Shown one piece after another: positions 13,171-63,283 of a stretch of 64,000 nt of DNA. The first letter of the stretch is position 1. Every line of letters begins with the position of its first letter. The notes below the pieces were generated by a model, which saw only the letters and a program-made list of their open reading frames with translations, was not told the DNA's origin and made no database searches. This DNA comes from Clostridiales bacterium (GTDB lineage: Bacteria > Bacillota > Clostridia > Christensenellales > Borkfalkiaceae): contig SVIN01000006.1 of the NCBI GenBank assembly GCA_015069495.1, forward strand, positions 10,847 to 74,846, read 5' to 3'. The position numbers were made by a program, and so were the translations under genes.

Positions 13171-14030
13171 AAACGGTATGGCTGACGGAACAACCGAATA
13201 CGGAAAAGGGCGTTGCGATGTTATTGGGCGGCTTTGACGGCTTGCACGCGGGGCATCGTAAGCTTTTATCGCGCGCAAAAAACAGCGGATGTTCGGTGGG
13301 GATTATGACCATTGTCGGCGGAAAGGAAAAGGGCTTGTTTACCTTTGCGGAGCGCGAGGAAATTTTTAAGACTGCTGGCGTGGATTTTGTTTTTGAGTTG
13401 CCGTTTGAGGAAATCAAGGACTTGTCACCGCGTGCGTTTTTACAGGTATTGGAAACGCAATTTACCCCTAAGTTGTTCGTTTGCGGGACGGATTTTCGTT
13501 TTGGCGCAAAAGCGGCGGGAACGGCGGAAATGTTAAAACAAAGCACCCAGGTATGCGTTGAAGTATTGCCGCTTGTGGAAATGAGCGGTGAAAAAGTTAG
13601 TTCGTCCTATATCAAAACGTTGTTGCAAAACGGAAAAGTGGAGCAAGCGCAGGAATTGTTGACCCATGCGTTTTTTTTGGTTGGAGAAGTATATGCTGAT
13701 CGAAAAATTGGTCGGACAATCGGGTTTCCGACGGCAAATATTTCTTACCCCATAGGTAAATATCCCTTAAAAATTGGGGTTTACGAAACGCGGGTTTGTG
13801 TGGATGGTAAAACGTATAAAGGAATTACCAATTACGGCGCGCGCCCGACTTTTGCGGATGAAACGGTGGTGACGGAAACCTATTTGGACGGCTTTGACGG
13901 GGATTTGTACGGTAAGACGTTAAAGGTGGAATTTATCCGCTATCTTCGCGACGTGCGGAAATTCGACAGTATAGACGGCTTAAAAAAACAATTGGAAGAA
14001 GATTTGAGGAGAGTAAGAACAAATGATTAA
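13164..14030 (+). CDS. ribF: bifunctional riboflavin kinase / FMN adenylyltransferase
   Basis: GGFDGLHAGH, SSSYIKTLL and GFPTANI motifs. Confidence 0.93.
   Translation: MLKTVWLTEQPNTEKGVAMLLGGFDGLHAGHRKLLSRAKNSGCSVGIMTIVGGKEKGLFTFAEREEIFKTAGVDFVFELPFEEIKDLSPRAFLQVLETQFTPKLFVCGTDFRFGAKAAGTAEMLKQSTQVCVEVLPLVEMSGEKVSSSYIKTLLQNGKVEQAQELLTHAFFLVGEVYADRKIGRTIGFPTANISYPIGKYPLKIGVYETRVCVDGKTYKGITNYGARPTFADETVVTETYLDGFDGDLYGKTLKVEFIRYLRDVRKFDSIDGLKKQLEEDLRRVRTND
13546..13562 (+). repeat. dispersed motif copy inside ribF
   Basis: CCCAGGTATGCGTTGAA, read as TQVCVE. Confidence 0.6.
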
Positions 14031-14868
14031 ATTTGGACCGAGCGGGAATTGTGAAAGTTTCTACGCGGAAGGATATTCCCACACGGAAGAATCGGCAGCG
14101 TTTGTAAAAAAACGCGGGTTGGATTGTTTTGAATATTCCTTCGGACGCGGTGTACGCATGTCTGAGGATAAGGCGATCTCTATTGGTGAAGCTTTTACCA
14201 AAGAGGATGTGGAAATTTCCGCGCACGCGCCCTATTTTATCAACTTTGCAAACCCCGACGATGAAATGGCGGCAAAATCCTACGGCTACGTATTGGACAG
14301 CGCAAAGATGCTGAAACTGATGGGCGGAAAGCGAGTGGTCTTTCACCCCGCGGCGCAGGGCAAAGCAAAGCGTGAAGAGGCGGTGGCTTTGACGGAAGAC
14401 CGCTTGAAAATTTTACGTGATTATATCTATCTCAATAATATGCAGGATATGATGTTCTGCCCTGAAACGATGGGTAAAATTGCCCAAATCGGCACCGTGG
14501 AAGAGGTGACCCGTTTCTGTAAAGTCGACCCCATATACACGCCTTGCGTAGATTTTGGACATATCAACGCGCGTGAGCAGGGTTCGCTTGTGACGGTGGA
14601 AGATTACAAGAGCCGTTTGGAATATATGATTGCGGAACTTGGGTTTGAACGCATGAAACATTTCCACGTACATTTCTCCAAAATTATGTACTCGGCAAAA
14701 GGGGAAATCAAGCACTTGACCTTTGCAGATGAAGTGTATGGACCGAACTTTGAACCTTTGGCGGTGGCTTTGAAAGAATTGGGGTTAGAACCTTACTTGG
14801 TCAGCGAATCAGCGGGCATGCAGGCGGAAGAAGCCGAAATTATGAAAAAAATCTACCAATCTTTGTAA
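14023..14868 (+). CDS. xylose-isomerase-like TIM-barrel protein (AP endonuclease family 2-like)
   Basis: 281 aa. HAPYFINFANPD and VVFHP patterns resemble the Nfo/TIM-barrel family. Exact function not determinable. Confidence 0.55.
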   Translation: MIKFGPSGNCESFYAEGYSHTEESAAFVKKRGLDCFEYSFGRGVRMSEDKAISIGEAFTKEDVEISAHAPYFINFANPDDEMAAKSYGYVLDSAKMLKLMGGKRVVFHPAAQGKAKREEAVALTEDRLKILRDYIYLNNMQDMMFCPETMGKIAQIGTVEEVTRFCKVDPIYTPCVDFGHINAREQGSLVTVEDYKSRLEYMIAELGFERMKHFHVHFSKIMYSAKGEIKHLTFADEVYGPNFEPLAVALKELGLEPYLVSESAGMQAEEAEIMKKIYQSL

Positions 14869-14871
14869 AAA

Positions 14872-14896
14872 CTCGCCCTTTAGGGCGGTTTTTTTA
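14872..14896 (+). terminator. rho-independent terminator
   Basis: CGCCC-TTTA-GGGCG hairpin followed by a T run. Confidence 0.75.
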
Positions 14897-14916
14897 TGGA
14901 AAATATCGTTGTATAC

Positions 14917-14945
14917 TTGACGAAAAGATTTTTTTTTGTTAAAAT
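14917..14945 (+). promoter_or_regulatory. sigma-70-type promoter of the M24 peptidase gene
   Basis: TTGACG (14917-14922), 17-nt spacer, TAAAAT (14940-14945). Confidence 0.5.
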
Positions 14946-14963
14946 AGTGATAAGAGGTAGTCT

Positions 14964-16019: not shown

Positions 16020-16023
16020 ACAA

Positions 16024-16197: not shown

Positions 16198-16240
16198 TAA
16201 AAATAGAAAAAATTTATATAGCATATAAAGGAGAAAAATT

Positions 16241-16804: not shown

Positions 16805-16828
16805 TCTACGTATACAAACGACAAATGG

Positions 16829-16856: not shown

Positions 16857-16873
16857 GTATAGCGAGGTAAAAT

Positions 16874-23332: not shown

Positions 23333-23350
23333 GGGCAGGTATGCGACGAA
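23333..23350 (+). repeat. dispersed motif copy (dnaG|sigA spacer)
   Basis: GGGCAGGTATGCGACGAA. 18/18 identical to the aroA copy. Confidence 0.7.
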
Positions 23351-26720: not shown

Positions 26721-27812
26721 ATGCAGAAGGTTCGCGCGGAAATCAATTTACAACATATACGGCATAACGCGGAGGCGTTTTCAAGGTTGACGAAGACGAA
26801 GCTTTGCGCAGTGGTCAAAGCAAATGCCTACGGCCATGGCGCGGAAGCGGTCACCGCCGCGTTGTGCGGGACAGCCGATTTGTTTGCGGTGGCATTGATA
26901 GAGGAAGGTTTGGCGATTCGTGTGGCGGCGTGCGGAAAAGATATCTTGGTGTTGACTCCGCCGACCGCTGAGGACGAGGTGTATGCTTTGGCGGTGAATG
27001 GCTTTACCGCGATGGCGGATTCACTGAAAACCGCCCGCTTAATTGTACGTGTTTGTGAAAAATACAACCTACCCCTCAAGGTACGTTTGAAGGTCAATAC
27101 AGGGATGAACCGTTACGGCATGAATGTGCAGACTCTAGGGAAAACTTGTAAGTTTTTACAAGGCAATCCATGGGTGCACGTTGTGGGTATGGATTCGCAT
27201 TTATGTGAGTGTAATATTACCCGCGCAGAAAAACAGTGCGTGTGTTTCGAACGAATGTTGACGATAGGGAAAAGGTATTTTCCTGCGCTCAACGCATACC
27301 TGGGTGCCACTTATGGGGCATTATTGGGTGAAAAATATCGCTTTGACGGGGTGCGTGTGGGGCTTGGTTTGTATGGATATTTACCATGTAAAGCAAACGA
27401 AACGACGGGTGTGGCGTTGGAAACAGTCAAAAGGCTTGACCTGAAAAAAGCTATGGCTGTATATGCCAAAACGATTGCATGCCGAACATATCAATTTGGC
27501 GGAATAGGTTACGGTGAAGAGAAAGCGCCCGAACGGTCGAAAGATTTGACTGTGATTAGGGCGGGATATGCAGATGGTTTTTTACGACAACGGGAAAATG
27601 GTACGGACGGTTGGCAAACCCAAGCGGGTGTATCGTGTATGGACGCTTGCATTCGTCAGGGCAGGTTCTTACAAGGACAATATTTGCCGATTATGACGGA
27701 TGCGGACGAGGTGGCAACCGTGACGGGTACGGTTGCGTATGAAGTTTTGTGCGCGGCTACCCGACGCGCGGAGTTTATTTATGACAAGGAATCTTCGTTT
27801 TGCGGACGGTGA
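26721..27812 (+). CDS. alr: alanine racemase
   Basis: AVVKANAYGHG PLP-lysine motif. Confidence 0.9.
   Translation: MQKVRAEINLQHIRHNAEAFSRLTKTKLCAVVKANAYGHGAEAVTAALCGTADLFAVALIEEGLAIRVAACGKDILVLTPPTAEDEVYALAVNGFTAMADSLKTARLIVRVCEKYNLPLKVRLKVNTGMNRYGMNVQTLGKTCKFLQGNPWVHVVGMDSHLCECNITRAEKQCVCFERMLTIGKRYFPALNAYLGATYGALLGEKYRFDGVRVGLGLYGYLPCKANETTGVALETVKRLDLKKAMAVYAKTIACRTYQFGGIGYGEEKAPERSKDLTVIRAGYADGFLRQRENGTDGWQTQAGVSCMDACIRQGRFLQGQYLPIMTDADEVATVTGTVAYEVLCAATRRAEFIYDKESSFCGR
27288..27304 (-). repeat. dispersed motif copy inside alr (reverse orientation)
   Basis: Reverse complement is CCCAGGTATGCGTTGAG, near-identical to the ribF copy. Confidence 0.6.
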
Positions 27813-29144: not shown

Positions 29145-29162
29145 GGGCATGTACGCGTTGAA
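29145..29162 (+). repeat. dispersed motif copy (membrane protein|rsmD spacer)
   Basis: GGGCATGTACGCGTTGAA. Confidence 0.7.
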
Positions 29163-34299: not shown

Positions 34300-34322
34300 G
34301 GCCATACCATGTATGCGTTGAA
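34300..34322 (+). repeat. long variant (rarA|lipoprotein spacer)
   Basis: GGCCATACCATGTATGCGTTGAA. Confidence 0.7.
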
Positions 34323-35899: not shown

Positions 35900-35922
35900 G
35901 GGCGTACCATGTACGCGTTGGA
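35900..35922 (+). repeat. long palindromic variant (lipoprotein|nrdR spacer)
   Basis: GGGCGTACCATGTACGCGTTGGA. GCGTAC-CAT-GTACGC inverted repeat. Confidence 0.7.
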
Positions 35923-44661: not shown

Positions 44662-45630
44662 ATGCAACATACTTTACAACAAATTGCAGATAGAATCAAG
44701 CAGGCAAACAGTGTGTTAATTGTGACGCATATGCGTCCTGACGGGGATGCCATTGGCGGTGCGTTGGCGCTTTCGCGCGCGCTGGATTTTCTCAAAATAC
44801 TCAACCAGGTATGCGTTGAATCGGATATTCCGTCCAATTTGACGTTTTTGGAAGGCGTCGAAAAAGTACAAAAGAAACCGCAAGACGAATTTGATTTATT
44901 GGTGACGGTGGATTGCAGTGATGAACAGCGTTTGGGCGGGTTATCCGAAACGTTTTTTATCGCAAAACGCAAGAAAATTGATACGATAAATATAGATCAT
45001 CACGTGTCGAATAAGCTGTTTGCAAAGTATAATTACATGCATCCTTGCTCGGCAAATTGTATGCATATTTGTGGACTCATCGAATACATGGGTGCCCCGA
45101 TTGATAAAAAAACAGCGGAGTATCTTTTGGTTGGGCTGTTGACCGATTCGGGAAATTTCAGTCACGATGACGTGACGGAAGAAACGATGGTTTTGGCGGG
45201 TAAGCTGATCAAAGCGGGTGCGGATATCTGCTACTGTAACGAAATGCTGTTCAAACGCCAAACCAAGGCGCGTGCGATGCTGTATGCACGTACGATGACG
45301 GGGATGCGTTTTTACCACGATAACCGTTTTGCGGTGATTGTTGTGACGAAGAAGAATATGGACGATTGCGGGGCGGATGCAAGTATGACGGAAGGGTTCG
45401 TTGATTTTCCTTTGAACGTGGATACGGTGGAAATTGCCGCGTCCGTGTTGGAAGTGAAAAGGGGGCAATATAAAATTTCCCTGCGTTCGAAACATTACGC
45501 GGATATGAACCGCTTGGCGGGCGTTTATGGCGGCGGCGGGCACGTGCGCGCGGCGGGCTGTATGCTGTTTGGTGAGATGGAGGAAGTGCTGGATAAGATC
45601 TCCTTTACCGCATCGCAATATTTAGATTAA
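44662..45630 (+). CDS. nrnA: DHH/DHHA1 phosphoesterase (NrnA-like)
   Basis: HMRPDGDAIG, NIDHH and GGGGHVRAAG motifs. Confidence 0.85.
   Translation: MQHTLQQIADRIKQANSVLIVTHMRPDGDAIGGALALSRALDFLKILNQVCVESDIPSNLTFLEGVEKVQKKPQDEFDLLVTVDCSDEQRLGGLSETFFIAKRKKIDTINIDHHVSNKLFAKYNYMHPCSANCMHICGLIEYMGAPIDKKTAEYLLVGLLTDSGNFSHDDVTEETMVLAGKLIKAGADICYCNEMLFKRQTKARAMLYARTMTGMRFYHDNRFAVIVVTKKNMDDCGADASMTEGFVDFPLNVDTVEIAASVLEVKRGQYKISLRSKHYADMNRLAGVYGGGGHVRAAGCMLFGEMEEVLDKISFTASQYLD
44805..44820 (+). repeat. dispersed motif copy inside nrnA
   Basis: CCAGGTATGCGTTGAA, read as QVCVE. Confidence 0.6.
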
Positions 45631-45790: not shown

Positions 45791-48700
45791 ATGGCGCAGA
45801 AAATTAGAAAATTGGAAGAAATTTTATCGATTACGGGAGAAGTTGCAAAGGTTATATCCTATGCTGATTATTTTGCCCGCCGTCCATTGTTTTCCACTTT
45901 ACAAATTCAAAACCAAGGCGACGAAACTATGGAAGGGTTGCGGTTGAGCGTACAAAACGCCAATGGTATGCTGTTGCCTTGCGAGAAGGAAGTGGACGTA
46001 CCGTTTGAAAGTACGGTCGAGGTGGATTTGGGCAGTATTTTATCCCCCTTGTATTTTTCCAATATTGAACAAGCGGCGGAAGAACGAATTGTCGTTACTT
46101 TACGCAAGGATAAAAAAATTATCGTCGAGCAACAGTATACCTTGACCGCTTTGCCTTTTGATTATTGGCAGGGTACGGACGGGGATGCGGAATTGCTCGC
46201 TTCGTTTGTCAGACCGAAATTGGGGGATTGCGCGCGCGTTCGTGCGGAGATTGCCGACCAATTGAAAAAGTGGAATACCCCCTGTGAATTGGGCGGGTAC
46301 GTTGGCAATGACAAAAACGCCGTACGCCGTATCATTGCGGCGTTGTACGCGGTGTTACGCCGTCATTCTATCTTGAAGAAGCCCTGCGTTTTGACCGAAC
46401 CCGTTTCCGCGGGTGCGGGTACGAAAATCTTGTCCGAACGCAAAGCAAGCGTTTTGGAAATTGCATTGTTCGCCTGCAGTTGCTTGGAAAATATGGGTTT
46501 GCATTCGGTATTGGTATTCGGGGAAAAAGAGGTATCCGTGGGTGTGTGGCTCTATGACAGCTGTTTCCTTGACACCGTGTCGGATGATATGCAACGCTTG
46601 GACGCGTACATTGCCGAAGGTATCAACAACGTAAGCTGTTTTGACGTGGAAGATTTGTTCTCGGATAAAAACGCAGCGTACTCCACCTCGGAAAATCATT
46701 TCCGTCAGAAATTGCAATCAGGGTATTACGAACGGTACGTAGACGTGCGCCGTTGCCGTATCGCATCGATTGCGCCCCTGCCTTTACGCGCGAAGAGCGT
46801 AAAAGGGTTTGAGGTGTTGTCGGAAGAGGATATGTCCCCCGATGCGGCACCGAGAGAATTGCGCGAAACGCAGAAACTCTCCTTAGATACGGAAGAAACG
46901 CGTGATAAGCAATGGGAACGCAGATTGTTGGATTTATCCATGAAAAACACTCTGCTGAACTTTAACCCTGCAAAGATGGCGGTGAAAATTCTTTCCGCCT
47001 CGTCGGATAAGACCTTGGATGCGTTGACCGAGCAGGATGAATTGGTGTTTGCGCCCGTCAGCGACGAAGTGAAGAAGATTTCGGATAAAAAGCAGGATTT
47101 CGGCATTGGCAATACAGCGAAACAAATGCGGGAATTGATTGATTTGGAAAATCAATCGGGGTTGGTACGCACCTACATGGATTCGACTGCTATGTTAGAA
47201 TCGTTGGGTCGTTTACAGCGTAAAAATAAAGAATCATACGAGGAATCGGGCGCGAAAATTTTGTACCTTTCGATGGGGTTTTTGAAGTGGTATTCGAAGA
47301 TGGATGGCGCAGAACATTACGCGCCGTTGGTGCTTTTACCCGTACAAATCAAACGTAGCAAAGGTGCAAGCGGTTATGCTTTGTCTGTGACGGACGAGGA
47401 CGTTTCCGTCAATACCACTTTGCTTGAATTTTTGAAGCAGGATTTCAACATCGATATCCGCGGTTTGGCGGATGCGATTCACGGGTTGAAGATTTCCGAA
47501 ATTCTCGCCATGGTGCGTGTGGAAATCGTCAAAATGCGTAATTGGGAAGTCATTGACGACGTATACCTTGCGGCGTTCTCCTTCGCGCGCTATCAAATGT
47601 GGAACGATCTTCGCCAAAACATCAATGAATTTTCGAAAAATAAAATCATCGAAGCGTTGTTGGATAATTCGATTTTGGCAGGCGGTTTAGAGGAAACGGC
47701 GAAAGAAGACGATGTTTCGCCTGAAACTACCCTTACTCCGTTGCCGGCGGACGCTTCGCAGTGGAGCGCGATCAACTTGTCGCAAAAGGGCAGAAGCTTC
47801 GTGTTGCACGGCCCCCCTGGTACGGGGAAATCGCAGACGATTACCAACATCATCGCAAACGCGTTAAACGATAACCGCAGCGTATTGTTCGTTGCGGAAA
47901 AACAAGCGGCTTTGTCTGTGGTTAAAAAACGTTTGGATAGTTTGGGGTTGGGAGATTTCTGTTTAGAATTACACTCGAATAAGACCAATAAAACCGAAGT
48001 GCTTCAAAAATTGCAAAACACCCTCGCGCTTGCGGGCGCGCAGGAGCAGGTGCGTTTGGATGAAACAGCGGTTTCTATCGCGCGTTTGAAAAATGAAATC
48101 GCCGAGCCGATGGAAGCGTTACACAAAAAACGCCGTTTGGGTGTGTCTGTGTATGAAGCGTTATTGATTTGCTTGCAAAACAAAAACGCCCCGACCATCA
48201 TGAATATCGAAAGCACTTTCTACGACGGTTTGACCAAGGAAAAAATGGACGAATACGAACGTATGATGGTGCAAGCGGCAGTTGCCGCGAAAGAATGCGG
48301 CGGCGTGCATAACACACCTTTTACCAACGTAAACGTGTCTGAATATAGCTTGGAATTGCGTGATTTAATCTATTGCTCGTCCGAGGTTATGATTGCGGAA
48401 ATTAAGCATTTGAAGAACTATATTGCGCTGTTCTTGGATTTGTACGGTCAAAATATCAGCACGCTGACTCGTAAGAAGTTGGAGAATCTCTACGAGATTG
48501 CCAAGCGTTTGCAAAGCGGTTCGCTGAATAAATATTTTAAGGAAAACGAAGAGGCGTTTTTCGCGTTCTTTAACGCCAACAGACGGTTGGATATCTGCCT
48601 TGAAAAGTATTTCGCATCCTGCAAAAAATTGGTGGATTTGGGCAAGGAATACAAGGAACTTGGCGAATGGCTTGATGCGGGTAAAACCGATTATGACAAG

Positions 48701-51439
48701 AATAAAACCATCAAAGGTATCGTGAAAAAGCTGAATAAGGTTTTGAAAGAGGATTTGGATGAAGCGACCTTGTTGCAACTGTTGAAAACAATCTACGATA
48801 TCTACGAATCAATGGATGCGATTCGTTCAAACACTTCGTTGGTACAATATTTCACCTTCGCGTTTGGCAGAGTGGACTTCTTCGATGCCCGCAGAAATTT
48901 CATGAAAGAGTTATACGATTTGCATCAGTTGTGCGCGTCCGTATTTATGGATTACAATGCGGACAGCTTCAACAGTATGTGTATGCGCGCGACGTGCGGG
49001 TATACTATGCCCGTCTTAAAAGGTTTGATGCGCTCGATGGGAAGTTTTAAGGAAGCAGAGAATAGTTTCCTTGAAATAACGCAAGCGGACAGAGAACGCT
49101 TGCCTGAGGAAGAAGTGTTGGAAATTTACACCTCGAAAGCGGGCGCGTTGATTGAAAACATTGACATGCTTGCCAACTGGTGTATGTATAAAAAGACAGC
49201 GCGCGCGTTGAACGATGCGGGTTTAACCTTCATCACCGATGCATTGGAAAACGGTTCGGTGACGGGTGAAAATATCGTGGAAAGCTTCGAAAAGAACGTT
49301 TATAAAAACTTCTTGCAGACGAATATTCCGCTCGACCCCGTATTGGCTCGTTTCTCGGCGGCAGTCTCCGAAGAAAAGGCGGAGAACTTGCGCGCGTTAA
49401 TGGATGAGTTTGCGAAACTTACCAAAGAACATATCCGTGCAAAATTGATTTCCCGCTTGCCTGTAGATACGGCGGACAGTACGCTTGCCTTGGAATTGGC
49501 AAATTTCCAACGTTTGACAAAGACCAATTTGCGCGGGGTGGGCTTACGCCGTCTGTTTGAAGATGCGCCCGAGCTGATGAAAACGCTTGCACCTTGTATG
49601 CTCATGAGTCCGATTACCGTATCGCAATATTTGCGCGCGGAAAACGGTTTGTTCGATTTGGTTATCTTTGACGAAGCCTCTCAAATTCCTACCGCGGAAG
49701 CGATTTGTTCGATTGCGCGCGGTAAGAGTTCGATTATCGTCGGCGATCCCAAACAGTTGCCTCCCACCGTATTCTTCAACAGCACTTACGTAGATGAAGA
49801 CAATTTGGAAAACGAGGATATGGAAAGTATTCTTGACGACTGCTTGACCATCAATATGGCGCAAAGGCATTTGACGTGGCATTATAGAAGTAAGCACGAA
49901 AGTTTGATTGCATTCTCTAATACTATGTACTATGAAAACAGATTGTGTACCTTCCCTTCGCCTGATACATTGGCAAGTAAAGTGCACTTCCAATACGTGG
50001 AAGATGGTATTTACGATCGCGGTGGTACGAAGCGTAATAAAGAGGAAGGGGATAAGTTGGTCAAAGAAGTATTGCGCCGTTTGACCGATCCCAAGGCGAG
50101 CAAGCAGAGTATGGGCGTCGTGACGTTTAGTACGGCGCAGAAGGAATATATCGAACGCAAACTCTCTGCGGCGATAGCCGAAAGAAAGTTGGAAAAAGTT
50201 GCATACGAACGCGAAGAGCCGCTGTTTGTCAAGAACCTTGAAAACGTGCAGGGGGACGAACGCGACGTGATTTTGTTCTCCGTTTGCTACGGCCCCGACC
50301 GTTTGGGCAGAATATCTTTGAATTTCGGGCCTTTGAATCAGTTTGGCGGTTGGCGCCGTTTGAACGTTGCCGTATCTCGTGCGCGTGAAGAAATGTTGGT
50401 CTTCTCGTCTATGACGGGTGCGATGATTGACGTTTCCAAGACGAAATCCCGCGGGGTAATGGGTTTGAAAGCCTTCCTTGAATTTGCACAGAAAGGCCGT
50501 ACTAACCTTGCAATTTCCTCGGCAAACGTTATGCGTAAAAAGGATGGTATCGGGAAGTATATCGCGGATGAGTTGGCTTCCTACGGGTATGATTGCCGTT
50601 ATGATGTGGGTGCGTCCGGGTTTAAGGTGGACGTTGCCGTGATTGACCCGAAGGATAGAAAACGCTTTATTTTGGCGATTATGTGCGATACGCCCAATCG
50701 TTTCTCGATTAAGGACAGAAACGTGTTGCAGTTGCAAACGCTTAAGCGCAACAACTGGAACGTAATGCGTATTTACTCGGTAAACTATTACAACAACCCT
50801 AAACGTGAAATTAAGAAAATCAAGGATTTGCTTGATAAGTTGACGGGCGCGGATAAAAAGGGCGGTGCGGAGCTTAACCGTTATAAAAAGACCTATAAGC
50901 AGGCAACGCTGACCAACATTGAAACAGACAGCGCATACGTCACCTCGGGTGAAAACGATAAGGATATCATCAATCGTTTGAAACTGATTGTGGCGGCGGA
51001 GGAACCCATTTCGACCGAATTCCTCATCCGCAGATGCTTAAACAGTTTGGGGATTACCAAATATGGTTCGAAGGTGGAAACACGCATGCAGGCGTTGATT
51101 GGCCTTTGCGGGTTTAAGTACGAGAAAGTGCTGGGTATGTCCTTCTATCATAAGACGGATAAATGTATCAGCTATGACCGCTACCGTGTGGAAGTAGGGG
51201 AAACGGTACGTAAAAATGAAGAGGATTATACTCCTTATGAAATTATCTCCATCGTGCGCGGTGCGTTAGAAGATAAGGTGGCGTTGTACATGGAAGAAAT
51301 TCAAACCATAGTTGCCTCTGTGTTCCGTGTGGTGAAACCGACGGACGGCTTTGCTTCCTACGTCAACGATTGCGTGACGTTGGGTGAAGAAAAGGGTTGG
51401 TTTGTGCGTTCCGTTTCGGATAGAATTTCTTTGGCGTAA
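45791..51439 (+). CDS. giant SF1 (Upf1-like) helicase with DUF4011-like region, PD-(D/E)xK (MTES_1575/DUF559-like) domain and DUF3320-like C-terminus; Hhe-like architecture
   Basis: 1882 aa. RLLDLSMKNTLLNF (DUF4011-type). Walker A GPPGTGKSQ at nt 47810-47836. Motif II FDEASQ, then GDPKQLPPT, QGDERDVILFS and NVAVSRAREEM. Next VDVAVIDP...LAIMCDT...NWNVMRIYS, a REase-like fold. Then a tail containing AAEEPIS..FLIRRC. Confidence 0.85.
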   Translation: MAQKIRKLEEILSITGEVAKVISYADYFARRPLFSTLQIQNQGDETMEGLRLSVQNANGMLLPCEKEVDVPFESTVEVDLGSILSPLYFSNIEQAAEERIVVTLRKDKKIIVEQQYTLTALPFDYWQGTDGDAELLASFVRPKLGDCARVRAEIADQLKKWNTPCELGGYVGNDKNAVRRIIAALYAVLRRHSILKKPCVLTEPVSAGAGTKILSERKASVLEIALFACSCLENMGLHSVLVFGEKEVSVGVWLYDSCFLDTVSDDMQRLDAYIAEGINNVSCFDVEDLFSDKNAAYSTSENHFRQKLQSGYYERYVDVRRCRIASIAPLPLRAKSVKGFEVLSEEDMSPDAAPRELRETQKLSLDTEETRDKQWERRLLDLSMKNTLLNFNPAKMAVKILSASSDKTLDALTEQDELVFAPVSDEVKKISDKKQDFGIGNTAKQMRELIDLENQSGLVRTYMDSTAMLESLGRLQRKNKESYEESGAKILYLSMGFLKWYSKMDGAEHYAPLVLLPVQIKRSKGASGYALSVTDEDVSVNTTLLEFLKQDFNIDIRGLADAIHGLKISEILAMVRVEIVKMRNWEVIDDVYLAAFSFARYQMWNDLRQNINEFSKNKIIEALLDNSILAGGLEETAKEDDVSPETTLTPLPADASQWSAINLSQKGRSFVLHGPPGTGKSQTITNIIANALNDNRSVLFVAEKQAALSVVKKRLDSLGLGDFCLELHSNKTNKTEVLQKLQNTLALAGAQEQVRLDETAVSIARLKNEIAEPMEALHKKRRLGVSVYEALLICLQNKNAPTIMNIESTFYDGLTKEKMDEYERMMVQAAVAAKECGGVHNTPFTNVNVSEYSLELRDLIYCSSEVMIAEIKHLKNYIALFLDLYGQNISTLTRKKLENLYEIAKRLQSGSLNKYFKENEEAFFAFFNANRRLDICLEKYFASCKKLVDLGKEYKELGEWLDAGKTDYDKNKTIKGIVKKLNKVLKEDLDEATLLQLLKTIYDIYESMDAIRSNTSLVQYFTFAFGRVDFFDARRNFMKELYDLHQLCASVFMDYNADSFNSMCMRATCGYTMPVLKGLMRSMGSFKEAENSFLEITQADRERLPEEEVLEIYTSKAGALIENIDMLANWCMYKKTARALNDAGLTFITDALENGSVTGENIVESFEKNVYKNFLQTNIPLDPVLARFSAAVSEEKAENLRALMDEFAKLTKEHIRAKLISRLPVDTADSTLALELANFQRLTKTNLRGVGLRRLFEDAPELMKTLAPCMLMSPITVSQYLRAENGLFDLVIFDEASQIPTAEAICSIARGKSSIIVGDPKQLPPTVFFNSTYVDEDNLENEDMESILDDCLTINMAQRHLTWHYRSKHESLIAFSNTMYYENRLCTFPSPDTLASKVHFQYVEDGIYDRGGTKRNKEEGDKLVKEVLRRLTDPKASKQSMGVVTFSTAQKEYIERKLSAAIAERKLEKVAYEREEPLFVKNLENVQGDERDVILFSVCYGPDRLGRISLNFGPLNQFGGWRRLNVAVSRAREEMLVFSSMTGAMIDVSKTKSRGVMGLKAFLEFAQKGRTNLAISSANVMRKKDGIGKYIADELASYGYDCRYDVGASGFKVDVAVIDPKDRKRFILAIMCDTPNRFSIKDRNVLQLQTLKRNNWNVMRIYSVNYYNNPKREIKKIKDLLDKLTGADKKGGAELNRYKKTYKQATLTNIETDSAYVTSGENDKDIINRLKLIVAAEEPISTEFLIRRCLNSLGITKYGSKVETRMQALIGLCGFKYEKVLGMSFYHKTDKCISYDRYRVEVGETVRKNEEDYTPYEIISIVRGALEDKVALYMEEIQTIVASVFRVVKPTDGFASYVNDCVTLGEEKGWFVRSVSDRISLA

Positions 51440-51466: not shown

Positions 51467-53134
51467 ATGAGTAGCAAGATTGCATTGAAAAGAGAAAGGG
51501 TGGATAAACTGTTTAATTTCCGTCCCTTCCTTTTCGGTGCAATCTTTTTTGCTTTTGGCATCGTCTTCTCTCTGGCGCATTATTTACATGAGGTGCATGC
51601 CGTGTGGATGTTGTGCGTGTTGCCTTGCGCCCTGATTCCCTTTTTCTTCTGTTCCGAAAAACGGCAATGGCTTCGGGTTGGATATGCCATGCTTGGTTTG
51701 TGTGTATGCTTCTTGGTCGGCTTTTTCGGGTTTGCCTTACAGATGGAACGTTATCAACGTGTGGAAAGTACGTATGATTGCTATTTCACAGGCAAAGTGG
51801 TGGAAATGCGGGAAGGTTATGGTGAAGTCGGTTTGGTGTTGGATGATTTATCCGTGAACGGAGAAGTATATCAATGTAAACTCATCGCGTACATGCCTAT
51901 GTCCTTTTGTGGAAATATCGGGTTATCCGACGTGTTGACTTTACATGGCGATATTGAAAAAATCGGTTTGGACGAGGATGGATTTGGACGTTATGCGAAG
52001 GATTTTGGTAAACGCATTTTTCTATCGTCCAATCGCCCCGAGGGTAGAAAAACGGGGCATGCGTTTGATTTATTTTTAATGTTGAACGCTCGCGCTCGTC
52101 AGGTGATTGAGGCAGGAATGGACAAAACACCCGCCGCAGTCACGAAAGGGGTATTGCTTGGCGATACCACGGGGATAGAGTCGGGATTGTATGAAAATAT
52201 CCGTTACGGCGGGGTGGCTCATATCTTTGCCGTCTCGGGGTTGCACGTGGGGGCACTGTTTGCCTTTTGTCTGTTATTGATGAAGAAGACGGGATTGAAA
52301 CGAGCGCCTGCACTTTTACAATTCATCTTAACGGCAAGCGTGCTGTTTCTTTATGCAGGGATGTGCGCGTTTACGCCGTCCGTTGTCCGCGCAAGTGTTA
52401 TGTGCTTGGTTGGATATATGTGCAAGTTGGTATTGGTTAAATTCGACTTCTTACAATCGTTGGGTTTATCTGCGATTGCGGTTTTGTTTTTTACACCTTC
52501 ATCATTGTTTACGGCAGGGTTTCAACTCTCCTTTTCGGCGTGCTTTGGGATTGCGTTTTTGGCGAAACCCATAGGGCAGGTATTTGATGAAGTTGCAAAA
52601 GGCTTTCGATATTTCTTCCCGCAAAAGCCTACCTCCGCAGAAATCGAAGCAATGAAAAACGATGATACCATGCCCCCTCGTTTGAGCACCCGCGCTTATC
52701 GTGCTGTGTCTTCGTTCTTGGCGGTCAGTATGAGTGCGCAAATTTTTACCGCACCGTTTTTGCTGTACTATTTCGGATATGTGTCGGGTTGGGCGTTGTT
52801 GCTCAATTGCATCTTCGTGCCTTTTATCAGTTTGATTTTCTCGCTGTTGTTGGCAGCGGTGGTGTTGGCGTGTCTATTGCCGACGGCTTGGGCAAGCGTT
52901 TTGTTGTTCCTGCCAAACACTTTGTGGTCGGCTGTACTGCTGTTATTTGAGGCGGTTGATTTTACTTCGTTTGCCTTGGAAATAGAAAACGTTTCGATAT
53001 CCATGGCGGCGGTCTATATCTTGGGATTCTTGTTCTGTACGGACAAATGGAACGTAAGCAAGTGGACGCGCTTTGTGCTTGCGATGGCATGTTTTTGTGT
53101 GTTTGGCGTGGGCATGTATGCGTTGAACGTATAA
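51467..53134 (+). CDS. comEC: ComEC/Rec2-family membrane protein with no metallo-beta-lactamase domain
   Basis: GVAHIFAVSGLHVG competence-domain signature. Many TM segments. No HxHxDH motif. 555 aa. Confidence 0.8.
   Translation: MSSKIALKRERVDKLFNFRPFLFGAIFFAFGIVFSLAHYLHEVHAVWMLCVLPCALIPFFFCSEKRQWLRVGYAMLGLCVCFLVGFFGFALQMERYQRVESTYDCYFTGKVVEMREGYGEVGLVLDDLSVNGEVYQCKLIAYMPMSFCGNIGLSDVLTLHGDIEKIGLDEDGFGRYAKDFGKRIFLSSNRPEGRKTGHAFDLFLMLNARARQVIEAGMDKTPAAVTKGVLLGDTTGIESGLYENIRYGGVAHIFAVSGLHVGALFAFCLLLMKKTGLKRAPALLQFILTASVLFLYAGMCAFTPSVVRASVMCLVGYMCKLVLVKFDFLQSLGLSAIAVLFFTPSSLFTAGFQLSFSACFGIAFLAKPIGQVFDEVAKGFRYFFPQKPTSAEIEAMKNDDTMPPRLSTRAYRAVSSFLAVSMSAQIFTAPFLLYYFGYVSGWALLLNCIFVPFISLIFSLLLAAVVLACLLPTAWASVLLFLPNTLWSAVLLLFEAVDFTSFALEIENVSISMAAVYILGFLFCTDKWNVSKWTRFVLAMACFCVFGVGMYALNV
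53110..53127 (+). repeat. dispersed motif copy at the comEC 3' end
   Basis: GGGCATGTATGCGTTGAA. Encodes the terminal GMYALN of the ComEC ORF. Confidence 0.7.
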
Positions 53135-53165
53135 TTTCTGCCAAAAAGAAAATGTAAAAAAAGTC

Positions 53166-53194
53166 TTGCTTTTTTGCATAAGTTATGCTATAAT
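53166..53194 (+). promoter_or_regulatory. extended -10 promoter of holA
   Basis: TTGCTT (53166-53171), 17-nt spacer including TGc, TATAAT (53189-53194). Confidence 0.55.
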
Positions 53195-53225
53195 ATAGCA
53201 TATAGAATATTGGGAGGCGTATTTC

Positions 53226-54224
53226 GTGAAATATATCGACTTTAAAAAATTCACAGATGAACACGGCGCGCAACCCATTTATCTGTTTGAGGGAGAAGAA
53301 GTATACTTCCGTGAAAAAGGGGAGGCGTTGCTTAAATCCCGATTTCTACAAGAACCCACGCTTGATTATGCATCCTTTGACGGCGCTTCGTTAAAAGGGG
53401 ATAAAATCAAGGGGTTGATTGACGCGGTCAATTGTTTTCCATTTGTCAGTGAAAAGCGTGTGGTTTGCGTGCGGGAATTTTACCCCACGGAAAAGGATTT
53501 TGATTTTTATTTAAAAGACTTGTTCGACAATCCCCCGTTGACGTCCATTTTGTTGATTTCCAACGGCGGGAAGGGGAAAACTGGCATCGCACCCTTGGCG
53601 AAAAAATCCAACGTCACCTACGTGGATTGCGCGCGTTCGGATGAAGAAACCATCAAGAAATGGATTTACGTGACTTGTAAACGCGCGGGTTTGTACGCAG
53701 ATGGCGTTACCTGTGGGAAGTTGGCGTCCTATTGTGTGTATGACATGTCACGTGTGGCGCAGGAAACGGAGAAATTGCTTGGTTATTGCGCGGCTGTGGG
53801 GGCAACTCGTTTGACGGATGAAGTGGTCGAAGAGTTGGTTTATCCCGATGCGGAGTATAAAATTTACGAACTCGCCAATGCGTTGGCGCGGAAAAATTAT
53901 TCGGTATATATGCGGGTAATCAAGGACTTATCCACCCGCGGATTCAACGAAACGGCATTGCTTTCCTCGTTGGTTTCCTACTTCAAAGGCTTGTATGAAA
54001 CCTCGCTTTGTAAGGGGAGTGACCAAGAGGTAGCAACGGCACTGGGGATTAAGGAGTACGCCGCAAGAAAGAACCGCGAACAGGCGGCAAAGTTCGGGAA
54101 AGAACGCTTGTTGCAATTATACAACGACGTGTACGGGGCAATCAGCGACGTGAAATGCGGTGTCATCACCCCTGCTTCCGCTTTAAAGACGGTGACGGCG
54201 CGCTTGTTTTTTGAAAAAATATAA
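53226..54224 (+). CDS. holA: DNA polymerase III delta subunit
   Basis: 332 aa. IYLFEGEE N-terminal pattern. Conserved comEC-holA adjacency. GTG start after GGGAGG. Confidence 0.8.
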   Translation: MKYIDFKKFTDEHGAQPIYLFEGEEVYFREKGEALLKSRFLQEPTLDYASFDGASLKGDKIKGLIDAVNCFPFVSEKRVVCVREFYPTEKDFDFYLKDLFDNPPLTSILLISNGGKGKTGIAPLAKKSNVTYVDCARSDEETIKKWIYVTCKRAGLYADGVTCGKLASYCVYDMSRVAQETEKLLGYCAAVGATRLTDEVVEELVYPDAEYKIYELANALARKNYSVYMRVIKDLSTRGFNETALLSSLVSYFKGLYETSLCKGSDQEVATALGIKEYAARKNREQAAKFGKERLLQLYNDVYGAISDVKCGVITPASALKTVTARLFFEKI

Positions 54225-57562: not shown

Positions 57563-57584
57563 TTCAACGCGTACATGGTATAGG
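57563..57584 (-). repeat. long variant in the convergent spacer (esterase / deacetylase)
   Basis: Reverse complement is CCTATACCATGTACGCGTTGAA. Confidence 0.65.
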
Positions 57585-57585
57585 T

Positions 57586-58428
57586 CTATCGTTTTCTAAG
57601 GCGAACGTATTCTCCGCCATTTTTCAAGGTGCATCCATGCGCTTTGGCAAGGGCGGATACACTGACAATTTGATATCCCGCGTTTTTCAAATCGGGTAAC
57701 AGCCGTTTCAAAGCTTCTACCGTATTGGGGTATCCGTCGTGCATCAAAACAATGGCCCCCGACGATACGCGGTCGTATACGCTGTGGTAAATTTCTTCCG
57801 CTGACACTTTACTCCAATCCATGGTATCCACGTTCCAATTGATGATAGGGGCGGAGGTTTGCGCTTTTACCGCATCATTGATAAAACCGAAAGGCGGGCG
57901 TAATAGATGTTGCTTTTTACCGTCTATCTTGGATAAAATTGCATCGGTGGTATCAATTTCTGCGTGTAATTCCTCATTGGGGAGCGTGGTCAAATCCAAA
58001 TGGGATTGAGTATGATTGCCCAGTTCAAAACCCAGTGCGTTTGCAGCGTGTAGGGTTTGGATGGAATCTTCCGTAACCAAGCCGCCGTTGACAAATAAGG
58101 TTGCCGTTGCCTTGCAATCAGGGTTATTTTCGTTGTATTCGGCAAAGACTGCGAAGATGTTTTCTAAGGTTTTTGCAGGGGAATCATCGAAGGTGAATGC
58201 AATTAATTTTCGGTTTTGTTGGATATAGGAAATGTCAATATCTGAAACGTCCCAAATGGGATTTTGTGAATTCGGCGTACCCTCTAAAGGGATGATTTCT
58301 TCGAAAAAATCATCAAATGATGGGGGCATGTACACGTTGAATTGTAAATTGTTGGCCTTTTTACCCGAACAACAGGGCAAAAAGAAAAGGCAAGCGGATA
58401 ATAAAATCGCACAAAAATATCTATACAT
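57586..58428 (-). CDS. polysaccharide deacetylase (NodB domain) lipoprotein
   Basis: FTFDD, HTQSH and LMHD motifs. N-terminal MYRYFCAILLSACLFFLPCCSG signal/lipobox. Start chosen at the internal Met. Confidence 0.85.
   Translation of the reverse strand: MYRYFCAILLSACLFFLPCCSGKKANNLQFNVYMPPSFDDFFEEIIPLEGTPNSQNPIWDVSDIDISYIQQNRKLIAFTFDDSPAKTLENIFAVFAEYNENNPDCKATATLFVNGGLVTEDSIQTLHAANALGFELGNHTQSHLDLTTLPNEELHAEIDTTDAILSKIDGKKQHLLRPPFGFINDAVKAQTSAPIINWNVDTMDWSKVSAEEIYHSVYDRVSSGAIVLMHDGYPNTVEALKRLLPDLKNAGYQIVSVSALAKAHGCTLKNGGEYVRLRKR
58322..58341 (+). repeat. dispersed motif copy inside the deacetylase gene (antisense to the gene)
   Basis: GGGGGCATGTACACGTTGAA. Confidence 0.6.
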
Positions 58429-60650: not shown

Positions 60651-60682
60651 AAAAAGCTCCGCGATTGCGGAGCTAAATTTTT
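60650..60682. terminator. bidirectional terminator
   Basis: AGCTCCGC-GATT-GCGGAGCT flanked by an A run and a T run. Confidence 0.85.
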
Positions 60683-61133
60683 AAAAACCAGCGTTTTTGA
60701 TATCGCGGTCAGTCGAACGTTTCAAATCGCGTTCGGCAATCGATTGTTTTTTGTCGTAGGTGTGTTTACCTCGGCAGAGAGCAATTTCCATCTTAACCAA
60801 CGAGCCCTTAAAATACATTTTCAAAGGCACTAAAGTATAACCCTGACGATTGATTTTGCCTGCAATTTTGGCAATTTCACCTTTATGAAGTAATAATTTT
60901 CGGTCTCTGCGAGTGTCCTTGGTGCTAAAAGCGTCGGACTTGTCGTATAAAGCAATATGCATATTTTTCACCGAAACGTCACTGCCTCGCACAAAACAGA
61001 AACTGTCGTTCATATTGACGTTGCCTGCGCGTAAGGATTTGATTTCGTTGCCTTCCAATACGATGCCTGCCTCATATTTTTCTTCGATAAAGTATTCAAA
61101 AGAAGCGCTTTTATTGTTTGTGATAATTTTCAT
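60681..61133 (-). CDS. smpB: SsrA-binding protein
   Basis: 150 aa. NKSASFEYFIEEKYEAGIVL, GYTLVPLKMYF and KHTYDKK motifs. Confidence 0.96.
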   Translation of the reverse strand: MKIITNNKSASFEYFIEEKYEAGIVLEGNEIKSLRAGNVNMNDSFCFVRGSDVSVKNMHIALYDKSDAFSTKDTRRDRKLLLHKGEIAKIAGKINRQGYTLVPLKMYFKGSLVKMEIALCRGKHTYDKKQSIAERDLKRSTDRDIKNAGF

Positions 61134-61153
61134 AATAGACTCCGTTTTTTGCG

Positions 61154-61176
61154 TTCAACGCGTACATGGGTGGGGG
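61154..61176 (-). repeat. dispersed motif copy (rnr|smpB spacer)
   Basis: Reverse complement is CCCCCACCCATGTACGCGTTGAA. Confidence 0.65.
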
Positions 61177-61177
61177 A

Positions 61178-63283
61178 TTACAGCTTTTTCAACAATTTAA
61201 ACTCGGTTCTGCGACGGTAAAAATCTACGTCGTCAACCTTTACCTTTAACCGTTCGCCGATGGTGTAGGTTTCCGTGTGACCGACCAAACGGAAACGATC
61301 AGCGTCATAGGAAAATTCACCGTAAAGAGATTCAATAGGGATAAACCCTTCAATGGTATTGGGCAATTCTGCAAACAATCCAAATGAGGTGACGCCTGAA
61401 ATGATGGCTTCGTATACTTGCCCGATTCGTTCGCTCATATACATGGCCATATACAAATCATCCACGTCGCGTTCGGCATCGGTTGCGCGCCGTTCGCGGT
61501 CGGAAGATTGTTTCGCTGCTGTGGAAACAAATTCGCTGAAACGCTCTACCGCTTCGGGATATCCACCATTTAACACCAACTTGATGATGCGGTGAATGCA
61601 AAGGTCGGGGTAACGGCGAATGGGGGAAGTAAAGTGGCAGTAACAAGCACTTGCCAAACCAAAATGTCCCAAATTTTCCGTGTCATAACGCGCCTTTTGC
61701 ATGGAACGAAGCATCACGCGATTGAGCACCGAATAGCTGGGCAAATTCTCCGCCGATTTCAGGATGTTTTGATAATCGTAGGGTTTTACGTCCTGCGCAG
61801 AGAAGCGCGCAGTCAATCCCAAGGTTTGAGCAAAAGCGCGGAATACGGTGGCTTTTTCTTCCGTTGGCTTTTCGTGCACGCGATATACGAAAGGCGCTTC
61901 AATCGAATGCATGTATTCTGCAACCGTTTCATTGGCCAATACCATAAAGGCTTCAATGATTTGATAGGAGAATTCCCGTTGATAATCGGGGATTTTGATT
62001 TCATCGTTTTCCAAGATAATTTTGGCTTCTTTGACATCCAACGAAATGTTGCCTTTTTTCTCGCGCATCGTCTGTAAAATATGGGTTAATTCACCGAAGA
62101 GGCATACCATGTCTTTGACGAGTGCATATTTTTGGCAAGTTTCATGGTCATTATCAAGGATTTTTCCGACTTCGGTATAGGTCATTTTATACTTCGAACG
62201 GATAATTCCTTCTACGATTTCACTGCTTTTCACGTTGCCTTTTTTGTCGATGGTCATAAGGCAAGATAAAGTCAAACGGTCTTCTCCCTCGTTTAAGGAA
62301 CAGATGCCGTTGGAGAGGGCACGGGGGAGCATGGGGAATACGCGGTCGGGAAAATAGACGCTGGTACCGCGTTCCAATGCTTCCAAATCCAATGGAGAAC
62401 GATATTCCACGTAATGGGTGACGTCGGCAATATGCACGCCAAGTAAATACTCTTCACCCACTTTTTCCAAAGATACCGCATCGTCAATATCGCGGGTATC
62501 CGCACCGTCGATGGTGACGATGAGTTTGTCTCGGAAATCTCTGCGCGCGAGGATGTCTTCTTGTGTAATCGGGCGGGACGCTTGTTTATCCGCTTCTTTA
62601 AGAACACGCGGGGGAAATTCCTCTTTGAGGTCGTACGAACGGATGATGGACAATTCTTCTGCAAAGAAGTCGTCCTCTTCACCAAGCACCTCAATGATTT
62701 CACCGCCAGGGCATTTGCCTTGCGGGTAAGAAGTGATTTTTGCGACCGCTTTGACTCCGCTTTTGATATGGGAGCAATCGGAAAGGGGGATATAGATTTC
62801 TGTAGAGAAACGTTTTTCATCGGGGAAGAGATAACCTGCGCGGCGATCTCTGCGGAAGGTGCCGACGATTTTGGTGTAACCGCGTTCGAGGATAGCAATT
62901 ACGTTGCCTTCATCATCGCTTCTGCCCCATGATTTTTCCATTAAAACGGTGTCGCCGTGTAAGGCGCCGTGTAAATTTTTATGGGGGATGAAATAATCGT
63001 TTTCGTTGCGTTCTTGACCCTCAGGGGTGAGAAATGCAAACCCGCGTTCGTTGCCGCAAATCGTGCCTTTGATAAGCCCCAATTGTGCAATCGTTCCATA
63101 CCTGCCCCCGTCATTTCGATAAATTTTACCTTCATCGCATAAAGCTTGTAATAGGTCGAAGAGTCTGTTTTTCTCCCGATAGGGGATTTGTAAAATTTTC
63201 AAAATTTCCGTCATTGTTTTACCGGCAAGCGTACCGTCTTCAAACGATGAGAAAAGGGATTCTTTCGCGTTCACAAAAATCAC
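61178..63283 (-). CDS. rnr: ribonuclease R
   Basis: 701 aa. RNB motifs (TIDGADTRDIDDAVS, HFGLAS..YCHFTSPIRRYPD) and a C-terminal S1 domain. Confidence 0.95.
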   Translation of the reverse strand: MIFVNAKESLFSSFEDGTLAGKTMTEILKILQIPYREKNRLFDLLQALCDEGKIYRNDGGRYGTIAQLGLIKGTICGNERGFAFLTPEGQERNENDYFIPHKNLHGALHGDTVLMEKSWGRSDDEGNVIAILERGYTKIVGTFRRDRRAGYLFPDEKRFSTEIYIPLSDCSHIKSGVKAVAKITSYPQGKCPGGEIIEVLGEEDDFFAEELSIIRSYDLKEEFPPRVLKEADKQASRPITQEDILARRDFRDKLIVTIDGADTRDIDDAVSLEKVGEEYLLGVHIADVTHYVEYRSPLDLEALERGTSVYFPDRVFPMLPRALSNGICSLNEGEDRLTLSCLMTIDKKGNVKSSEIVEGIIRSKYKMTYTEVGKILDNDHETCQKYALVKDMVCLFGELTHILQTMREKKGNISLDVKEAKIILENDEIKIPDYQREFSYQIIEAFMVLANETVAEYMHSIEAPFVYRVHEKPTEEKATVFRAFAQTLGLTARFSAQDVKPYDYQNILKSAENLPSYSVLNRVMLRSMQKARYDTENLGHFGLASACYCHFTSPIRRYPDLCIHRIIKLVLNGGYPEAVERFSEFVSTAAKQSSDRERRATDAERDVDDLYMAMYMSERIGQVYEAIISGVTSFGLFAELPNTIEGFIPIESLYGEFSYDADRFRLVGHTETYTIGERLKVKVDDVDFYRRRTEFKLLKKL
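62101..62118 (+). repeat. partial long variant inside rnr (antisense to the gene)
   Basis: GGCATACCATGTCTTTGA. Shares the 12-nt GGCATACCATGT with the 32147 copy. Confidence 0.4.
63097..63109 (-). repeat. half motif inside rnr
   Basis: Reverse complement is GGGGGCAGGTATGG. Confidence 0.3.

Follow-up and report, generated by a model that had tools for sequence, protein, structure and literature searches.

A 2025 survey restricts the known uptake-enhancing sequences to two families, Neisseriaceae and Pasteurellaceae; the DNA uptake sequences (DUS) are over-represented in genes for genome maintenance, and terminators contain about half of them (bioRxiv 10.1101/2025.10.24.684340). Both families are Gram-negative. 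Uptake sequences can reach 1,471 and 1,892 copies per genome, about one per 1.2 kb (PMC2817400). The DUS of Neisseriaceae are 12-mers occurring as dialects, with ComP as receptor, and the uptake signal sequence (USS) of Pasteurellaceae is composed of a 9-bp core, AAGTGCGGT, and helically phased AT tracts. In this work, we analysed an asymmetric, non-palindromic word of 15-20 nt that recurs in a 64,000-nt stretch of Clostridiales bacterium DNA (contig SVIN01000006.1 of assembly GCA_015069495.1, positions 10,847 to 74,846; hereafter the window) and throughout the genome from which the stretch was taken. Like the USS, it is a high-copy word conserved at the DNA level, found on both strands and, through substitution, inside genes in several frames, where it imposes the peptides; it is enriched between genes, has A/T tracts in phase with its core and is common to related species, with variants. 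Unlike the USS, it belongs to an uncultured Gram-positive lineage of Clostridia, its core is 15-20 bp long and its density is about six-fold lower. It also differs from the USS by a wave of A/T content that extends on both sides to about 130-170 bp, by conserved deserts in core regions and by tandem copies spaced by 31-32 bp. Like the DUS, it is distributed clade-wide with lineage variants, prefers gene 3′ ends, occasionally forms inverted pairs capable of hairpin formation and coexists in the genome with type IV pilus genes; unlike the DUS, it forms only 4-5 inverted pairs, its sites in the window do not correspond to terminators, and it is absent from the MutS/MutL/PolA region.

Other described systems resemble the word in part. 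The Escherichia coli gyrase motif has a central block from -16 to +19 and periodic arms that reach about 63-66 bp on each side (about 47 bp long), with a period of 10.75 bp (PMC6379681). Repetitive extragenic palindromes and bacterial interspersed mosaic elements (REP/BIME) are, like the word, present in hundreds of copies after genes, but REPs are palindromic and extragenic whereas half of the word's copies are intragenic. The parS/ParB, matS/MatP, Noc, SlmA and RacA ram sites are tolerated in genes and unevenly distributed, in a conserved regional pattern, as is the word, which would also resemble them in being read by a protein. These are, however, palindromic dimer sites of about 10-100 copies with known proteins, and none has been described with a long phased A/T wave. 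HIP1 (GCGATCGC) of cyanobacteria is hyper-abundant and conserved as DNA in genes across species, with no settled function; it differs from the word in being an 8-bp palindrome, methyltransferase-linked and far denser, without phased flanks. A search of the open literature found no description of any long, asymmetric word whose flanks carry a phased wave on both sides.

A high-copy word enriched between genes

The window is part of contig C41 of an assembly of 1.74 Mb in 50 contigs. The host genome is a metagenome-assembled genome (MAG) of Candidatus Scatosoma, a genus placed by the NCBI taxonomy in Clostridia incertae sedis. The relatives, fetched with the TrmK protein, are gut MAGs of ruminant, chicken and human origin that bear the name Candidatus Scatosoma or Clostridia bacterium.

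An initial annotation had noticed a recurrent motif in the window, and its over-representation proved to be far beyond chance. The 15-mer CAKGTAYGCGWTGAA is present in 14 copies for 0.14 expected, CAGGTATGCGTTGAA with at most 2 mismatches in 14 copies (0.14 expected), CATGTAYGCGTTGAA with at most 1 mismatch in 12 copies (0.01 expected), and the 11-mer core GTAYGCGWTGA, again with at most 1 mismatch, in 27 copies (4.4 expected). The same was observed in the whole genome, where the core 11-mer occurs 127 times for 6.3 expected from an order-3 Markov model, and CAKGTAYGCGTTGAA 75 times for 0.03 expected. With a position weight matrix (PWM) covering positions -8 to +12 and a threshold of at least 12 bits, we retrieved 244 sites, that is one per 7.1 kb, compared to 11 in a simulated order-3 Markov null. 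Twenty of these sites fall in the window, about half of them outside coding sequence, in short spacers just behind stop codons (Table 1).

The full word reads AAA(-15..-13)-N-G-N2-[GGGGG / NNTAC / GCACC]-CAK-GTAYGCGWTGAA-N3-4-AAAAA, and two upstream subfamilies can be distinguished, GGGGGCAK and NNTACCAT. As judged by crude gene calls made for this analysis, 131 of the 244 sites are inside coding sequences (86 sense and 45 antisense) and occupy all stop-free frames, some frames being preferred; a further 94 fall between genes and 19 at gene ends. This corresponds to a five-fold enrichment between genes: densities are 0.49, 0.45 and 0.24 sites per kb in convergent, co-directional and divergent spacers, respectively, and 0.086 per kb in coding sequence. 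For sense copies behind a gene, the stop codon shows a sharp peak 13-14 nt upstream of the core, and thus TAA supplies the A-tract of the word. Sense and antisense copies are in a ratio of 42:23 in co-directional spacers. Co-orientation with the leading strand, as deduced from GC skew, reaches 72% (66-73%) compared to 65% (63-69%) for chance-level PWM matches.

Tandem direct copies are found 31-32 bp apart, with four copies at C9:11952-12083. With this spacing, successive copies share a tract, located at +18 of the first and at -14 of the second. Several copies adjoin terminators.

Variants of the word, ACCGTGTAC and ACGGTAC, replace it at orthologous sites in other lineages. At orthologous junctions of more distant relatives, for example upstream of nrdR, loci L007, L003 and L068 carry ACCGTGTAYGCG, and L009 and L015 carry ACGGTACGCG. 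These slightly different words suggest lineage 'dialects'.

The word is maintained as DNA and its copies arise in place

To read the word inside genes, we compared host proteins and their coding DNA between species. The peptide [Q/H]V[C/R]VE is found at the RibF position among 120 orthologues of 66-94% identity. In the DNA of five relatives, the codons are always CAK GTA YGC GTT GAA while neighbouring codons vary freely, and the two radical alternations C/R and Q/H of the peptide fall exactly on the Y and K positions of the word. Similarly, the V/D alternation of NrnA orthologues falls on its W position. In TrmK, the word lies in a loop where GGGCAGGTATGCGATGAA is kept in at least 10 species with single-base variants only. 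The codons that precede it are unrelated between species, the synonymous sites of the conserved YTDAEYEFG block that follows vary freely, and more distant TrmK orthologues have unrelated loops of similar length.

The case of Alr goes against protein conservation. All 67 other orthologues (67/67) read AHL(S/G)ATYG at this position, and several of them carry a near-word, CACCCAGGTGTGCGAT, on the antisense strand. The genome of the window alone reads LNAYLG, with a His to Tyr change at residue ~199 (27288-27302) which perfects the word on the other strand. The alternations at degenerate bases of the word, together with this substitution, therefore show that point substitution creates the copies in place, at times in spite of protein conservation, after which they are kept at the same site across species. 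Positional conservation extends to spacer sites, between species that share only about 66% identity in Alr. The birthplaces of copies are the free space just after stop codons and intragenic positions that are tolerant, or sometimes not so tolerant.

Taken together, these results show that the word is maintained as DNA, independently of its orientation and specifically in one clade, Candidatus Scatosoma and close relatives. DNA-level rather than protein-level conservation had been proposed initially, with exclusion of a shared peptide motif; both are supported by the two orientations, by the use of all stop-free frames and by invariant synonymous sites in RibF, NrnA and TrmK. Accordingly, distant orthologues do not present the same peptide at these positions, neither TrmK at 42-65% identity nor any of the 67 other Alr. 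The ribF copy was correctly seen as occupying alignable positions; it is a substitution patch there, as are the copies of NrnA and Alr. For trmK, an in-frame insertion had been suggested. No clean insertion was observed; a small length change is present, the loop being about 3 codons longer than in word-less relatives, and the word is a substitution patch in a free loop.

The word is flanked by a long, phased A/T wave

Around the sites, A/T content rises and falls every 11.4-11.5 bp, in a phase locked to the word. Peaks are located upstream at -14, -22, -33, -46, -57, -69, -80, -92 and -103, and downstream at +18, +29, +41, +53, +64, +76, +87, +97 and +108. The amplitude is 0.06-0.11 near the word, and the wave can be followed above noise for about 170 bp upstream and about 130 bp downstream, each copy being at the centre of about 250-350 bp of helically phased A/T tracts. 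Intragenic sites show it with the same strength as intergenic ones.

Since the PWM is limited to -8..+12, the flanks were not selected for. Anchoring on generic A-tract words as control gave amplitudes of 0.004-0.012, and equal-size random subsamples never exceeded 0.025. PWM matches of 0-8 bits gave 0.007-0.013, compared to 0.06-0.09 for every class of at least 12 bits. A by-product of the general 11-bp periodicity of the genome is thus ruled out, controls being 5-10 times weaker. The same wave was found at the loci of relatives, many of these sites being orthologous to one another.

Rich and empty regions are conserved between species

The sites are over-dispersed along the genome, with a variance-to-mean ratio of 1.77 and 64 empty 10-kb bins compared to 36.8 expected. 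The contig of the window carries 25 sites for 12 expected. Contig C38 has 0 sites in 90 kb (p = 3e-6); its genes include MutS (identified by Pfam) and PolA, MutS2, ParC, NrdD and CarB (recognised by eye). Contig C3 has a single site in 57 kb and encodes ValS (Pfam), EF-G and GuaB (both by eye).

A comparable distribution was observed in relatives. The MutS loci of five of them (83-100% identity) contain 3 sites in 99 kb (0.03 per kb), whereas density is 0.25 per kb at RibF loci of relatives (83 kb) and 0.44 per kb at TrmK loci of close relatives (97 kb). Two of these loci, L129 (MutS, 1 site) and L003 (TrmK, 5 sites), come from one and the same NCBI assembly. The deserts are therefore not an assembly artefact: core genes are not duplicated, composition and skew match the genome, and the desert recurs in relatives, including this same-assembly pair. 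The deserts are native to the genome and the regional pattern is conserved across species.

A second 'dialect' in the deserts was also searched for and rejected, no other word being enriched there; only intragenic tandem repeats of 69 bp (23 codons) were found. Such repeats are present in large genes of C34 (59-101 kb), C30 (90-91.5 kb) and C17 (9.7-11.6 kb), constitute the most frequent single-strand 12-16-mers of the genome and are unrelated to the word.

The dnaA gene is located on C17, which has an average site density. On C43, GC skew switches from positive to negative at about 24-26 kb, as at a terminus, and weakly back at about 64 kb; sites are present on both sides, with a 26-kb gap before the switch.

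A putative docking site for a DNA-wrapping protein

The properties described above jointly point to recognition of double-stranded DNA by a protein; the protein itself and its function are what we infer here. Our preferred explanation, held tentatively and as somewhat short of probable, is that the word is a high-affinity docking site of a putative sequence-specific protein that bends or wraps DNA. An architectural or wrapping protein, or a topoisomerase, best accounts for the length and two-sidedness of the wave, for tandem copies spaced by 31-32 bp and for deserts that are conserved. Such a protein would read the asymmetric core of about 20 bp, and about 100-170 bp on each side could follow its surface or a tight superhelical path in an 11.4-bp register, their A/T tracts being phased with that core. 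Selection could be at the origin of the wave, as could preferential birth of words in pre-curved DNA or a periodic imprint of mutation and repair left by the bound complex. With a tandem spacing of 31-32 bp, several protein units might be placed on one helix face, and the rich and empty regions might reflect a role in organising particular chromosome domains or in managing supercoils at gene ends. In a more specific version, which we consider somewhat unlikely as a whole, the word would anchor an undescribed nucleoprotein complex of gut Clostridia of Christensenellales type. This complex would wrap about 250-350 bp in the 11.4-bp register at about 250 genome sites, at the ends of genes and within them, and mark chromosome domains, with dialects co-evolving with the protein and a pressure strong enough to rewrite conserved residues.

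Several observations weigh against the docking site. No candidate binding protein was identified. Known organising sites (parS, matS, Noc, SlmA) are palindromic and far fewer, and a nucleoid protein would be unusual in having an asymmetric, strongly conserved 20-mer with about 250 copies as its site. It is difficult to sustain weak selection on flank positions numbering in the hundreds. For TrmK, word-less species have an upstream flank that follows the wave almost to the same degree (r of 0.28 compared to 0.36, at this one site); the wave may therefore precede the word, as a precondition and not a consequence. No clear tie of the sites to origin or terminus emerged on the unordered contigs. 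Finally, apart from the long wave, the deserts and the tandem spacing, all properties are equally expected of a DNA uptake sequence.

Alternative explanations

In this last alternative, the word would be a self-recognition sequence: competent cells would preferentially bind and take in DNA carrying it by means of a pilus-associated receptor, and biased uptake followed by homologous recombination would accumulate it by point mutation throughout the genome, as for the USS and DUS. We hold this to be unlikely overall, although it best accounts for a word that overrides protein coding and is enriched between genes. It would explain hundreds of copies on both strands with no polarity, intragenic copies in all open frames with a frame preference, and lineage variants at orthologous sites. 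The in-place mutational origin that overrides amino acids (C/R, V/D, His to Tyr) is a behaviour described for uptake sequences (PMC2817400), the A-tracts next to the core are in helical phase as in the Haemophilus USS, and the five-fold intergenic enrichment with preference for gene 3′ ends, the few inverted pairs giving terminator-like hairpins, the ComEC gene of the window and the type IV pilus operon of the genome all agree with it. On the other hand, one site per about 7 kb is roughly six-fold sparser than in known cases, only 4-5 inverted pairs exist in the whole genome, and the sites of the window are not terminators. The conserved deserts in core and DNA-repair regions (0 in 90 kb) are opposite to the Neisseriaceae bias, and neither the 130-170-bp two-sided wave nor the 31-32-bp tandems have a counterpart in USS or DUS. 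In addition, ComEC is devoid of a metallo-beta-lactamase domain, and DprA, ComEA and ComFC were not found by crude regex searches of this incomplete MAG, which is a weak test. A strong site for gyrase or topoisomerase IV at gene ends, analogous to BIME-2/REP, would combine the core as G-segment with phased arms wrapping the enzyme, and relieve transcription supercoils; we regard it as improbable. The central block with periodic arms does resemble the E. coli gyrase motif, in which a block of about 35 bp with periodic AT/GC arms is read as protein-wrapped DNA, and spacers with gene 3′ ends are favoured over divergent promoter spacers. Nevertheless, the gyrase motif is symmetric and highly degenerate while the word has an asymmetric core that hardly varies; its wave has a period of 11.4 bp compared to 10.75 bp, and its arms, of at least 100 bp, reach about twice the length. 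Genes contain more than half of the sites, and the deserts take in highly transcribed core regions, such as that of EF-G and ValS on C3 (1 site in 57 kb).

An RNA-level or expression signal at cistron junctions (a processing site, a terminator or antiterminator, translational coupling, or the operator of a dimeric regulator) is largely refuted, and we leave it hardly any probability. The core peak 13-14 nt past stops, the overlap of some copies with start codons or Shine-Dalgarno sequences, and the 6-3-6 dyad GCATAC-CAT-GTATGC of one subfamily had pointed to it. However, co-directional spacers contain the word in either orientation, in proportions that match the compositional baseline, and 131 sites are in coding sequences, 45 of them antisense. 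A hairpin or operator built on the dyad was rejected for lack of stem covariation (A/C 25, A/T 18, G/C 10, G/T 9), and 9 of the 10 sites tested folded no better than shuffled sequence. No Rfam match (0) was obtained in the window, which argues against a known RNA family. Terminator and sigma-70 promoter matches in the window are at chance, a single terminator-like match overlapping a site. We judge very unlikely that the word is a selfish or relic repeat without cellular function, either a remnant of REP type, with its REP-associated tyrosine transposase (RAYT), or of miniature inverted-repeat transposable element (MITE) type, or a word propagated by biased gene conversion. Such a repeat would be in line with the high copy number, the two subfamilies distinguished upstream, some inverted or tandem pairs and the gene-end preference. 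Yet the RibF, NrnA and Alr copies fill alignable codons with no insertion, which excludes a MITE or insertion origin; target duplications and longer homologous flanks are absent, phased flanks sit in unrelated coding DNA, and positions are conserved across species with Alr about 66% identical. Membership in the RAYT-associated REP/BIME class is likewise rejected, the word having no hairpin-forming palindrome and not being extragenic (131/244 in coding sequences). Nor is the word enriched in viral contigs: the 15-mer was found in 43 of them, with one copy each, about chance by an estimate from collection size, and a phage-borne word was thus discarded. Finally, a polar motif of the type of Chi, FtsK-orienting polar sequences (KOPS) or SpoIIIE recognition sequences (SRS) does not fit, since strand bias equals the compositional baseline and the word is 15-20 nt long compared to 5-8 nt.

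Competence and pilus genes

On the minus strand of C13 (20776-29935), a type IV or competence pilus operon encodes several N_methyl pilins together with a T2SSE ATPase, a T2SSF platform protein and, probably, a prepilin peptidase. Among the pilins, one of 367 aa has a large C-terminal domain without assigned fold. In the window, the region 51467-54224 encodes a short ComEC of 555 aa, with a Competence domain and a weak DUF4131, followed by a holA-like gene. The comEC gene itself bears two copies of the word.

Sites in the window

The sites of the window are listed in Table 1. Host genes named in the initial annotation are supported by Pfam for RibF, TrmK, Alr, NrnA (DHH/DHHA1), ComEC, the polysaccharide deacetylase and RNase R. 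Eight sites are within open reading frames (ORFs), 7 of them in Pfam-confirmed genes. The motif positions given initially do correspond to sites, with coordinates 1-5 nt off: the 15-mer starts at 13548, 44806, 24951, 53113, 7446, 1786, 27288 (minus strand) and 58327. Translations agree with the peptides read at first, QVCVE in RibF and NrnA, QVCDE in TrmK, GMYALN at the end of ComEC and, for the antisense copy of alr, LNAYLG. This was not the case for MYAMN, assigned to position 1787: the aroA frame of the copy at 1786 reads GHVRDEW up to the stop, and MYAMN belongs to the +1 frame. Two further antisense copies had been reported; the one in the deacetylase gene (given as 58322) exists and reads FNVYMP, whereas that at 62101 in rnr is a decayed half-copy below the PWM threshold. 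Intragenic copies in TruB (12577), ComEC (51882, minus strand) and NrnA (45077, minus strand, weak) had escaped notice.

Table 1. Copies of the word in the window. Coordinates are those of the 11-bp core, except for the decayed half-copy; PWM scores are in bits. SDR, short-chain dehydrogenase/reductase.
Coordinates	Strand	PWM	Location	Remarks
521..531	+	22.4	17 nt past upstream ORF stop	GGGGGCAG-GTATGCGACGA; predicted aroA ATG (523) inside
1789..1799	+	30.8	last aroA codons (GHVRDEW-stop)	EPSP synthase Pfam
3539..3549	+	21.2	spacer before SDR gene	ATG (3546) within 3′ end of word; kept in L121, L124
7449..7459	+	22.5	in/after small ORF	GTCTGCGTTGA variant; same place in L121, L123, L124, L125
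12577..12587	+	22.7	inside truB, sense	GGGGGGCAT-GTACCCGATGA; TruB Pfam; kept in L121
13551..13561	+	25.8	inside ribF (QVCVE)	identical codons in five relatives
23339..23349	+	20.0	dnaG/sigA spacer, 22 nt past stop	names by L121 synteny; kept in L121, L123
24954..24964	+	30.3	inside trmK hypervariable loop (GQVCDE)	near-exact word in at least 10 species
27289..27299	-	23.4	inside alr, antisense (LNAYLG)	in place of otherwise invariant AHLG/S
29151..29161	+	28.9	29-nt co-directional spacer, 9 nt past stop	kept in L002, L004, L005, L007, L068
32148..32158	-	28.8	19-nt spacer	orientation opposite to flanking genes
34311..34321	+	28.8	spacer, 14 nt past stop of upstream gene	
35911..35921	+	22.3	upstream of nrdR	variant GCGTTGGAG, Shine-Dalgarno source; fold z -2.1, sole hairpin among ten sites
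44809..44819	+	24.9	inside nrnA (QVCVE)	orthologues QVC[V/D]E
45077..45087	-	13.6	inside nrnA, antisense	weak copy
51882..51892	-	21.5	inside comEC, antisense	
53116..53126	+	30.0	last comEC codons (GMYALNV-stop)	
57564..57574	-	27.3	convergent spacer	terminator-like hairpin directly after
58330..58340	+	24.6	inside polysaccharide deacetylase gene, antisense (FNVYMP)	
61155..61165	-	25.4	12 nt past rnr stop	sense to rnr
62101..62121	+		inside rnr, antisense	decayed half-copy, GGCATACCAT-GTCTTTGACGA; GGCATACCAT kept, core lost

The predicted starts of aroA and of the SDR gene lie inside copies of the word, and the nrdR Shine-Dalgarno sequence GGAG (35918-35921) is made by a variant of its 3′ end. 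Between nrnA and comEC, the window encodes a protein of 1882 aa (45791-51439) with DUF4011, superfamily 1 (SF1) helicase and restriction endonuclease (REase, MTES_1575) domains; the PWM detected no copy of the word within this 5.6-kb gene.

Significance

High-copy words that override protein coding are known in few bacterial groups, and this one is found in a very common uncultured Gram-positive lineage of the gut. It accounts for odd lineage-specific residues (C/R, V/D and the His to Tyr change of Alr) which would otherwise be misread as protein evolution, and provides a sharp marker for binning and for detection of foreign DNA in these MAGs. Two of its features have not been described for known cases, the two-sided phased A/T wave of 130-170 bp in unrelated coding DNA and the conserved word-free regions. 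If it is truly an uptake tag, the word would be the first Gram-positive case, and sequence-specific transformation would have its first evidence in Bacillota. If it is truly an architectural site wrapped by a protein, it would reveal a new kind of bacterial chromosome organisation, whose signal can be read from metagenomes.

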